IMG/VR virus record: IMGVR_UViG_3300030250_000013
DNA length: 54,876 nucleotides
Source of the DNA: a virus
Lineage: Duplodnaviria; Heunggongvirae; Uroviricota; Caudoviricetes
Strand: one strand, 5' to 3'
Both the position numbers and the translations under genes were made by a program. The notes under the pieces are model-generated. The model was not told the DNA's origin and made no database searches. It saw only the letters and a list, made by a program, of their open reading frames with translations. This document shows, piece by piece, positions 53,864 through 54,816 of the stretch; position 1 is the stretch's first letter, and every line of letters starts with the position of its first letter.

Positions 53864-54052
53864 CTAGTCTCCTTTAGTGCGCAGGTGGTTTTTCCAGCGG
53901 TTTTGCGCCGCGCTGGGCTTTTTGCAAAAACCACAATCCATCATCCCGTAATATTTTATTAACCCCATTCGTCGGTTGCTGAGTCTCACCCACTGCCAGA
54001 CGCCGGGACCGTTTCTACGAACTAACAGAATCTTTGCTTTACGGTTTTTCAT
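53864..54052 (-). CDS. hypothetical protein
   Basis: 62-aa ORF, ATGA-coupled to the ParB-like gene. Confidence 0.3.
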   Translation of the reverse strand: MKNRKAKILLVRRNGPGVWQWVRLSNRRMGLIKYYGMMDCGFCKKPSAAQNRWKNHLRTKGD

Positions 54053-54816
54053 AACCGGTGCTCCTTCAGTGCTTTTAACGCTTCAAACTGTTCAGCAGTA
54101 AGTTCAACCAGGACTTTACCACCTTCCTGGCGGGTTGCAGACCATTCACCACGGATTGCTTCCACTGCAGACCGTACCAGTTTAGCGGGTGGACGACGCG
54201 TGACTACAGGTTCTTTATCACCTGCTTTAAACTGGCGAATGGCTGCTGATGCGCTGATTTCACCATTCTGGATCCGGCGTTTAAGTTCCAGCGGCATATC
54301 AAGAATATTCAGTTGTTCGTAAACGTGCTGAACGGTTTTACCGACCTGTGTAGCGATCTGCTCAACACTCATGCCATATGAACGGAAACGACCGTAAATA
54401 ACAGCACGTTCAACAGGGGACCACGGTTTACCTTCATTACCTTTTAACAGTGTCAGGGTCTGTTGTAGTTCGTCACCGGACGATTCAACAACATCTACTG
54501 TCAGAATCGGCGTCCCGGCTTCAATAGCTGCCAATACGCCACGTAAACGATGCTCACCATCCTGGACATACGGAACACCGTCAACAACCTGTACCACGAT
54601 GGGTGGAACGAAATCGCCGTTGGTATAAGCCTGACGAAAGTTTTCAATGTGTGCCAGTGCTGCTTCAGTTTCCCAGTAGTTGTCGGTAAACACACCGCGT
54701 GGGTTATGTCCTGGACGAATCTTGATAATACGCGGATCAATGCGATATGCGTTACCACGTTTTACGTTGGTTTTATCGGTATCAGACAGCTTGCGAAGGG
54801 AGTTAATGTTAGCCAT
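54049..54816 (-). CDS. ParB-like nuclease domain protein
   Basis: 255 aa; ParB N-terminal domain pattern (...VVQVVDGVPYVQDGEHRLRG...) followed by an HTH-like region; its 5' end lies in the terminal repeat and is duplicated at 1-39. Confidence 0.65.
   Translation of the reverse strand: MANINSLRKLSDTDKTNVKRGNAYRIDPRIIKIRPGHNPRGVFTDNYWETEAALAHIENFRQAYTNGDFVPPIVVQVVDGVPYVQDGEHRLRGVLAAIEAGTPILTVDVVESSGDELQQTLTLLKGNEGKPWSPVERAVIYGRFRSYGMSVEQIATQVGKTVQHVYEQLNILDMPLELKRRIQNGEISASAAIRQFKAGDKEPVVTRRPPAKLVRSAVEAIRGEWSATRQEGGKVLVELTAEQFEALKALKEHRL

Follow-up and report, generated by a model that had tools for sequence, protein, structure and literature searches.

Orphan proteins of the ParB fold that act as CTP-dependent regulators on mobile elements have been documented in KorB (PMC11790492), in HerB (PMC13370423) and in a survey of the fold (PMC12704722). 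The ParB-type fold is today regarded as an NTP-binding switch, and the nucleotide specificity of proteins carrying it is not predictable from sequence or with AF3 (PMC12704722). In the phage ParBs associated with 5mYOX the NTP residues are dispensable (PMC13229309). Homologues of HerB were found in the INPHARED phage collection in three cases only, all from cyanophages (PMC13370423). The parS of IncC plasmids, with the core TTTCACATGTGAAA, belongs to the KorB-domain ParB of parAB053 (PMC10954446). Phage 9NA is virulent, lacks lysogeny genes and packages its DNA by the pac-type headful mechanism (PMC4153490).

Here we describe a parB-like gene of a 9NA-like phage. The window (the whole stretch of DNA that was analysed, 54,876 nucleotides) was placed by megablast among the 9NA/Sasha-type siphophages, namely Sashavirus BDX09P1, PDP46, KarinMuster Bas82, AVIO78A, Sasha and 9NA. 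Our preferred reading, to which we assign a probability of roughly 45%, is that the product is an orphan member of the ParB/Spo0J/KorB/Noc family which, by analogy, would serve in lytic growth as a nucleotide-gated DNA-binding regulator or organiser, and not as a partition protein or a nuclease. The features on which the description rests are listed in Table 1.

Nucleotides 1-99 of the window are exactly identical to nucleotides 54778-54876. The window thus represents a genome of 54,777 bp, circular or circularly permuted, with an assembler overlap, and the "genome junction" is an artefact of linearisation, not a biological end. The G+C content of the genome is 43.8%. Scans of the whole window for tRNA genes and Rfam families yielded nothing.

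Table 1. Coordinates of the parB-like gene, its promoter region and domains, neighbouring genes, and the classes of palindromic array sites (numbering of the window)
Feature	Position	Strand	Remarks
Duplicate of the first 39 nt of the parB CDS	1..39	-	Assembly overlap
Leader	40..74	-	Inverted repeat and SD GAGG (53..50)
Inverted repeat TTAGCCTCA-N11-TGAGGCTAA	74..46	-	Exact; overlaps last base of -10, contains SD
Sigma-70-type promoter of the parB unit, complete copy	74..113	-	11/12 consensus match; unique full-length match
-10 GATAAT	79..74	-	parB promoter
-35 TTGACA	102..97	-	Followed by 17-nt spacer
Upstream element TAAAATAATTC	113..103	-	Conserved part of parB promoter
YspA/SLOG-family protein, upstream co-directional gene	111..506	-	Stop codon inside parB promoter element
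C5-methyltransferase-like gene	503..1183		Two genes upstream of parB; phrog_757; FxGxG, PC and ENV motifs
orf258 (9NA gp84 family)	49845..50621		Divergent from terS; phrog_25538
parB-like CDS, 255 aa	54049..54816	-	Stop codon 54049-54051; ORF list, translation, phrog_1033, homologues
C-terminal alpha-beta-beta-alpha domain, short, aa 208-255 (48 aa)	54052..54195	-	AF2 secondary structure, pLDDT
ParB-type HTH DNA-binding domain, aa 133-192	54241..54420	-	PF17762; aligns with HTH of Spo0J, Myxococcus ParB, Noc and KorB
Recognition helix KTVQHVYEQLNIL	54301-54339	-	Within ParB-type HTH; identical in all 9NA-like lineages
Box III LKGNEGKP	54424-54447	-	GNEGKPW aligned with Spo0J ENLQRED
N-terminal ParB/Srx-type (ParB-CTPase) fold, aa 20-129	54430..54759	-	Spo0J/ParB alignment, AF2, Foldseek
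Box II QDGEHRLRG	54538-54564	-	GEHRLRG aligned with Spo0J GERRYRA
Box I IRPGHNPRG	54694-54720	-	Variant nucleotide-pocket motif; canonical NPxQPR
Second copy of leader, -10 and first 3 nt of -35	54817..54876	-	Cut by window end; 54778-54876 = 1-99
Array class A, TAATGCAC-AAC-GTGCATTA			Window, Bas82, L004, Sasha
Array class B, TAACAC-N3-GTGTTA plus nnTGAAACTA			9NA, L008
Array class C, TTAC-AACTG-GTAAGCTGAAAC			L007, L010, VLCpiS10a, L009

The open reading frame is a real gene, with an ATG start and a Shine-Dalgarno sequence 10 nt upstream. Its product was matched over the full length by phrog_1033, "ParB-like partition protein" (E = 3e-60). The only Pfam family above cutoff was PF17762 (HTH_ParB; E = 2e-6, 28.3 bits against a cutoff of 22.6), and the same family was the only one in the precomputed Pfam annotation of all homologues. 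Two further profiles stayed below their cutoffs: NCBIfam TIGR00180 (parB_part), which matched residues 62-192 with E = 2.4e-9 and 37.2 bits (trusted cutoff 58.45), and the KorB domain PF08535 with E = 0.025 and 15 bits (cutoff 22.3). PF02195 (ParBc), the profile by which the first-pass annotation had proposed to check the domain, gave no match even at E ≤ 1. When PDB sequences were searched with phmmer, the matches were Thermus Spo0J, B. subtilis ParB, Myxococcus ParB, Noc, Caulobacter ParB and KorB; with a profile of the family the Spo0J match rose to E = 5.5e-10.

In the model that AlphaFold2 gave from 20 family members (mean pLDDT 80.9), the N-terminus has the beta-alpha topology of the ParB N-terminal domain; a helical HTH domain follows, and a disordered linker (aa 201-207) joins it to the small C-terminal domain. 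The top 30 Foldseek matches of this model in the PDB were Noc, KorB, ParB and Spo0J (probability 1.0, E down to 5e-8), and among viral models it matched many phage "ParB/Spo0J HTH" proteins. The other profiles, the PDB sequence matches and the structure together indicate that the N-terminal ParB fold and the HTH are real despite the PF02195 miss. Thus the domain order given by the first-pass annotation, a ParB N-terminal domain followed by an HTH, was borne out by PF17762, TIGR00180 (below cutoff), phrog_1033, the PDB matches and Foldseek; a profile search with PF02195 finds no ParB domain, yet the other profiles and the structure show the fold. The C-terminal domain, to which no Pfam family corresponds, is a putative dimerisation module by analogy with the C-terminal domains of ParB proteins.

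The nucleotide pocket is of a variant type. Where canonical proteins have QPR, GERRxR and ENLQR, the phage protein has NPR, GEHRLR and GNEGK, so that residues of canonical CTP binding or hydrolysis are replaced in each box (Gln by Asn in Box I, the first Arg of GERR by His, and Glu by Gly in Box III). The invariant or near-invariant columns of the family alignment include G36, N38, R40, D86, G87, H89, R90, R92 and N127. Since these residues sit in the three pocket boxes, selection appears to be concentrated on the pocket.

The ParB-like protein of 9NA-like phages is already known, having been annotated in relatives. Overall identity to the proteins of Sasha, Bas82 and IMG/VR contigs was 98-100%; individually, Sasha gp77, 9NA gp81 and KarinMuster Bas82_0082 were 98.8%, 90% and 98.4% identical in amino acid sequence to the protein of the window, and the annotated ParB-like gene of PDP46 was about 95% identical in nucleotide sequence. 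These four have the same genome position, promoter and leader, and there is no difference of substance. In the 9NA-like cluster 20 records encode a ParB at least 60% identical, compared with 24 that encode a capsid protein at least 80% identical. The parB-like gene is therefore an essentially universal core gene of the lytic 9NA/Sasha cluster.

The close family comprised 29 clusters among 5.8 billion proteins. With tblastn, homologues were detected in 276 phage records, and those of the virulent Jersey- and Skate-like siphophages, about 32% identical, are annotated "transcriptional regulator" or "KorB domain". In the phages with distant homologues (Bas78, fEV-1 and Tbat2_2) parB lies again in a replication/recombination module. 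Homologues were also present on 2,432 plasmids, of which 2,158 are conjugative. Outside phages the nearest relative is encoded by IncA/C plasmids, an orphan "parB-like regulator" with 46% identity over 193 aa (BLASTP E = 2e-55). The protein of the window carries the signature of a subfamily, consisting of the peptide MxxINSL[RK]xL, a Box II of the form G-x-[HR]-R-x-R and an HTH with LDMPLELKR, and by these sequence marks it belongs with the 9NA-like phage and IncA/C "parB-like regulator" proteins.

The -35 hexamer and the upstream element of the parB promoter are whole only at the start of the window, whereas the 3' copy ends after three bases of the -35. The earlier statement that the ends of the window cut through promoter and leader was therefore correct. 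The upstream block TAAAATAATTCTTGAC occurs 13 times at ≤1 mismatch and is followed by the conserved spacer rnATTrCA. A 16-mer of the promoter had 17 matches at ≤3 mismatches (13 at ≤1), compared with 1.24 expected at ≤3. With about 13 near-identical copies in the genome, the promoter called "copy 1" thus belongs to a family of promoters that heads many transcription units. A 26-bp element is common to the 13 promoters; it includes the dyad TAATTC-TTGAC-GAATTA, whose centre is the -35, and nothing ties this dyad to ParB. The parB promoter is kept in 9NA and in the Klebsiella-type relatives.

There was no terminator between the SLOG gene and parB. This, and the position of the SLOG stop codon, make read-through into parB likely. 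Within a long cluster of co-directional replication genes, parB is the first to follow an internal promoter. The order is helicase, exonuclease, primase ... methyltransferase-like, SLOG, parB, small ORFs, HTH/zinc-ribbon protein and HD phosphohydrolase; the cluster ends at a bidirectional terminator near 50626-50646. Of the earlier description as the first gene of an operon crossing the genome junction, the first position holds with respect to the internal promoter, but the junction is artefactual and the cluster extends further upstream. Bas82, L006 and L009 have an extra small gene between the shared promoter and leader and parB.

The inverted repeat of the leader occurs once per genome and always behind the promoter of the parB unit. 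When lineages that share only about 70% identity in ParB are compared, the leader is better conserved than the coding sequence, and one outer pair of the repeat covaries (T-A to C-G). If transcribed completely, the leader would fold with -13 to -15 kcal/mol (z about -4.5); a start at least 5 nt past the -10 would leave only a weak stem (-5.6 kcal/mol, z -1). Transcription usually starts at least 5 nt after the -10. Either the repeat forms a hairpin in the 5' RNA, or it is an operator overlapping +1. Its 11-bp spacer is unlike that of known ParB-family sites. Lying over the -10 and +1, it is the only conserved gene-linked candidate for a ParB site, and as such would give autoregulation. A leader hairpin as a general trait of the promoter family was rejected, as most of the 12 other leaders had no significant hairpin. 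No analogous inverted repeat was detected at the promoters of the Tbat2_2, fEV-1, Bas78, L011, L012 and IncC homologues.

The first-pass annotation had considered a role in the partition of a plasmid-like prophage, with the palindromic arrays at 32.8 and 49.4-49.8 kb as parS-like targets. Membership in the ParB family speaks for a centromere-binding protein of a plasmid-like prophage or carrier state, as does the N-terminal peptide INSLRKL, which we take to be faintly similar to the INALF that in Spo0J sits directly after LGKG. However, the absence of a partner ParA noted earlier was confirmed: the deviant Walker A motif KGGxxK[ST] was not present in any frame of at least 60 aa in the window, GxGK[ST] motifs were confined to the helicase and a tail protein, and no ParA is annotated in 9NA (whole genome) or in the regions of Bas82 and Sasha that were examined. 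The ParA-activating motif used in the survey of ParB-fold proteins, (L|F|I)G[KR]G(L|F|I), was absent from the protein when searched as a regular expression. In addition, the phage group is virulent and without lysogeny genes (PMC4153490), and megablast against 5,426 complete E. coli genomes, plasmids included, gave no match to the gene. Apart from a 237-bp stretch the phage head region was absent from plasmids.

ParB, Noc, KorB and VirB bind abutted palindromes of 14-16 bp. A search for such palindromes (arms 7-8, spacer 0-2), with conservation checked in 9NA, L007, L008 and L010, revealed no repeated or conserved parS-like site of 14-16 bp; the promoter dyad alone recurred, and the remainder were single palindromes in coding regions. 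The IncC parS core was rejected as a site because it was not enriched in the window (6 matches compared with 6.8 expected).

The arrays themselves are real and non-random, which favours the partition role. The palindrome TAATRCA-N5-TGYATTA has two sites at 32779 and 32842 and seven between 49372 and 49785, i.e. nine compared with 3.4 expected, a number reached in none of 100 shuffles. An AT-rich module of roughly 110 bp that contains ATAGATA-type repeats is present at both loci. On one side of the larger array is terS, which probably starts at Met40 of the listed ORF (49296), and on the other the divergent orf258. The N-terminus of orf258 matched no Pfam family; its sequence reads like a Cro/YdaS-type HTH. 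When ten genomes were compared, every relative had arrays in the terS/orf258 intergenic region, yet their motifs were of three kinds (Table 1), and 9NA had the 7+2 layout of the window with class B sites. The DNA-binding domain of ParB (aa 130-197) is 97% identical between the window (class A) and 9NA (class B), and nearly identical between L008 (B) and L007 (C); its recognition helix GKTVQHVY is the same in 10/10 genomes. By contrast, the N-terminal HTH of orf258 comes in exactly three types, which coincide with classes A, B and C in all ten genomes. Because the array class follows the orf258 HTH and not the ParB helix, the arrays are, on these sequence grounds, most plausibly sites of the orf258/gp84 family. 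Covariation has thus largely refuted their identification as parS, and we regard a partition function as scarcely credible. The arrays were also considered as TerS or pac sites and rejected, since the N-terminus of TerS is nearly identical across the motif classes and does not covary.

The regulator or organiser role is suggested by the fold and family, the conservation of the pocket boxes, the lack of a ParA and of LG[KR]GL, the virulence of the phage group, the absence of the gene from complete E. coli genomes and plasmids at megablast level, the near-universality of the gene in the cluster and the precedents of KorB and HerB, together with its position in a replication module, a strong promoter with a conserved leader repeat and the orphan relatives on IncA/C plasmids. 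It is weakened by the failure to find a repeated or conserved parS-like palindrome, by the leader repeat, whose spacer is atypical and which could be a plain RNA hairpin, by the PF02195 miss and the sub-cutoff scores of TIGR00180 and the KorB domain, by the replaced pocket residues and a nucleotide specificity that sequence does not predict (PMC12704722), and by the dispensable NTP residues of the 5mYOX-associated ParBs (PMC13229309). According to this model the protein would be made in lytic growth, dimerise and bind DNA through its HTH; the variant NTP pocket would act as a switch closing the N-terminal domains around DNA, and the closed clamp would regulate transcription or organise phage DNA during replication, much like KorB, Noc or HerB. 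Autoregulation through the inverted repeat at its own promoter is possible. A more specific version, in which the NTP-gated clamp is a KorB-like global switch that loads at the repeat of its own promoter or at the -35 dyad of the ~13 promoters, then slides and silences or times transcription, with the IncA/C members of the subfamily doing the equivalent after DNA entry, seems to us a long shot.

Among the alternatives, the ParB-like protein might load on DNA and recruit or activate the nearby C5-methyltransferase-like enzyme, for which phage ParB-methyltransferase fusions and ParB-dependent thymine dioxygenases are precedents (PMC13229309, PMC12704722). A C5-methyltransferase-like gene is found not only here but also in 9NA, Sasha and most Klebsiella-type relatives; in the Skatevirus Bas78 the ParB homologue directly adjoins a DNA methyltransferase, and the IncC homologue is two genes away from a site-specific one. 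The association is nevertheless not general: Bas82 has the ParB but no methyltransferase match in its 13-kb locus, in fEV-1 the annotation shows no methyltransferase within 5 kb, and the mostly "hypothetical" genes around the Tbat2_2 homologue include none with that annotation. Moreover, ParBs of the 5mYOX type have no DNA-binding domain, whereas the phage protein has one. We consider this cofactor role unlikely. Unlikelier still is an early action on the host chromosome, either a HerB-like reprogramming or a VirB-like countering of H-NS silencing of the phage DNA with its 43.8% G+C. VirB reportedly relieves silencing in a CTP-dependent manner (a preprint), which would be a precedent for the latter. 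The strong host-type promoter, the lack of a target found on the phage genome and the spread of relatives on conjugative plasmids (2158/2432 plasmid matches) fit such an action, and HerB provides a precedent for the former (PMC13370423). But HerB has 652 aa in four domains and a different dimerisation core, compared with the 255 aa of the phage protein, the gene sits in the replication module and not in an obvious host-takeover block, and no site on the host can be proposed.

The remaining alternative is a DNA nuclease acting on host or phage DNA; a nuclease role had also been raised by the first-pass annotation. It derives only from the historical name of the domain and from the annotation "ParB-like nuclease domain" in SP069 and FSL SP-062. 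The best structure and sequence matches are however the CTP-binding clamps ParB, Noc and KorB, the protein has a complete ParB HTH, and no nuclease family was matched in Pfam, NCBIfam or PADLOC. With the fold understood as an NTP-binding switch (PMC12704722), the nuclease proposal found no support, and we judge it highly improbable. The PADLOC defence and anti-defence models had no match for ParB, orf258, the SLOG protein or the methyltransferase.

The parB-like gene is otherwise a matter of routine annotation, present already in relatives. The analysis removes a wrong lead, in that the arrays are very probably not parS and are assigned by covariation to the adjacent orf258/gp84 HTH protein; the control regions that they mark are two, lying upstream of terS and upstream of the head operon. 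It also delineates a compact orphan ParB subfamily with a variant pocket, common to a lytic enterobacterial phage cluster and to about 2,400 mostly conjugative plasmids. This subfamily would be a convenient small model for ParB-fold switches outside partition, and KarinMuster/Bas82 on E. coli K-12 would make it tractable.

Compared with the chromosomal ParB/Spo0J and Noc proteins, which are CTP-dependent clamps, the phage protein shares the N-terminal fold, the HTH and the domain order, and retains the Gly and the second and third Arg of Box II as well as the Asn of Box III. It differs from them in having no ParA, no LG[KR]GL and no detected parS, and in its much shorter C-terminal domain. KorB of RK2, a global repressor and sliding clamp, likewise combines the ParB fold and HTH on a mobile element, and its structures 8qa8, 8qa9 and 1r71 were among the matches; the many near-identical promoters of the phage genome recall the 12 OB sites of RK2, although no OB-like operator, IncC/ParA partner or KorA-like clamp-locker was found in the phage. 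HerB/YfjB of F-like plasmids is an orphan ParB-like protein with CTP-binding and HTH domains that is expressed right after entry, binds DNA and reprograms transcription, and it is set apart from the phage protein by the extra domains D3 and D4 and by a V-shaped dimer core (PMC13370423). The IncA/C "parB-like regulator" (R55_24 type, 312 aa) is an orphan encoded apart from parAB053 and near a DNA methyltransferase (PMC10954446). It differs from the phage protein in a Box II (GHRRRR) closer to the canonical one, in a longer and different C-terminus and in its plasmid context, but the two are alike over residues 1-193, including the MAxINSLRxL peptide and the HTH.

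The palindrome arrays of the window lie 5' of terS and 5' of the head-gene operon (table below). Among ten genomes, the arrays fall into three lineage-specific motif classes, and these correspond without exception to three types of N-terminal HTH in the protein encoded by the adjacent orf258 (gp84 in phage 9NA). The arrays are probably a control region (for late transcription, origin or pac function) run by the orf258/gp84-family protein. A tandem repeat of the peptide EAPVARV, in four to five copies, was found within orf258 (window about 50400-50490); the copy number differs among the homologues of the relatives, and a 'direct tandem repeat region' is annotated within the Sasha homologue.

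The sequence MKISDRAKRA forms the start of TerS in all relatives and corresponds to Met40 of the window ORF; the TerS of VLCpiS10a is annotated at 211 aa. Judging from these sequences, the listed terS ORF is probably over-extended at its start, with Met40 (49296) as the likely true start, in which case two of the palindromes would be intergenic. At both loci the palindromes adjoin a duplicated AT-rich module containing ATAGATA/TCTATG iteron-like repeats. The Klebsiella-type relatives carry (TATAGATAG)n at the position of this module.

Thirteen near-identical promoter modules were found in the window. Each consists of TTTAAAATAATTCTTGAC-rnATTrCA followed by a -10 element (TAnnnT) and then by roughly 31-38 nt of leader, and the module is also kept in 9NA and in the Klebsiella-type relatives. 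Since neither conservation of the spacer nor the TAATTC-TTGAC-GAATTA dyad is required by sigma-70, these features suggest that an additional factor acts at the 13 modules.

Coordinates of features in the window (unless another replicon is named)
Feature	Position	Strand	Remarks
SLOG protein, YspA/cpYpsA-related	111-506	-	PF10686, E 1e-19
Short C5-cytosine-methyltransferase-like protein	503-1183	-	phrog_757
ORF-poor stretch, ~470 bp	28185-28650		several strong hairpins; contains GGATCACCTCCTTA
AT-rich module, duplicated, ~110 bp	about 32670-32770, 49580-49680
Palindrome arrays	49372-49785, 32779-32860
terS ORF as listed, 250 aa	48661-49413	-
orf258	49845-50621	+	9NA gp84 family, phrog_25538
Second putative DNA-binding protein of parB transcription unit	52237-52632	-
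62-aa ORF immediately 3' of parB	53864-54052	-
Conserved promoter 16-mer TAAAATAATTCTTGAC	113, 1657, 6948, 7012, 32582, 32871, 36768, 38540, 40762, 44210, 45980, 47594, 48082		5' base on own strand
IncA/C orphan 'parB-like regulator'	6001-6939 of IncC plasmid pB39_C

The genes for the SLOG and the methyltransferase-like proteins are located directly 5' of the promoter of parB, the orphan ParB-like gene. The methyltransferase-like gene, whose product had no Pfam match, was found in most relatives; no match was obtained in the 13-kb locus of Bas82 (phage KarinMuster). In the second putative DNA-binding protein, an HTH-like segment with a weak match to phrog_323 ('transcriptional regulator, D5-like') precedes a zinc-ribbon-like tail of the form CxxC...CxxC. 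On the other side of parB, the 62-aa ORF is located in a 185-bp segment (53868-54052) with 96.8% nucleotide identity to the P1-like phage RCS47. This region is matched by 91 records, most of them Escherichia or Stx-converting phages in the 95-99% identity band, and the segment looks like a mosaic insertion.

The ORF-poor stretch contains no ORF of at least 90 aa and gave no tRNA or Rfam match. Its GGATCACCTCCTTA has the same sequence as the 16S rRNA 3' terminus, and positions 28272-28508 share 99.6% identity with two E. coli plasmids of 40 kb.

Plasmids also carry relatives of the phage ParB-like protein: homologues were found in 2,432 plasmids, most of them conjugative, and the closest non-phage relative is the IncA/C 'parB-like regulator' (46% over 193 aa). 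One orphan ParB-like subfamily is thus common to lytic phages and conjugative plasmids.
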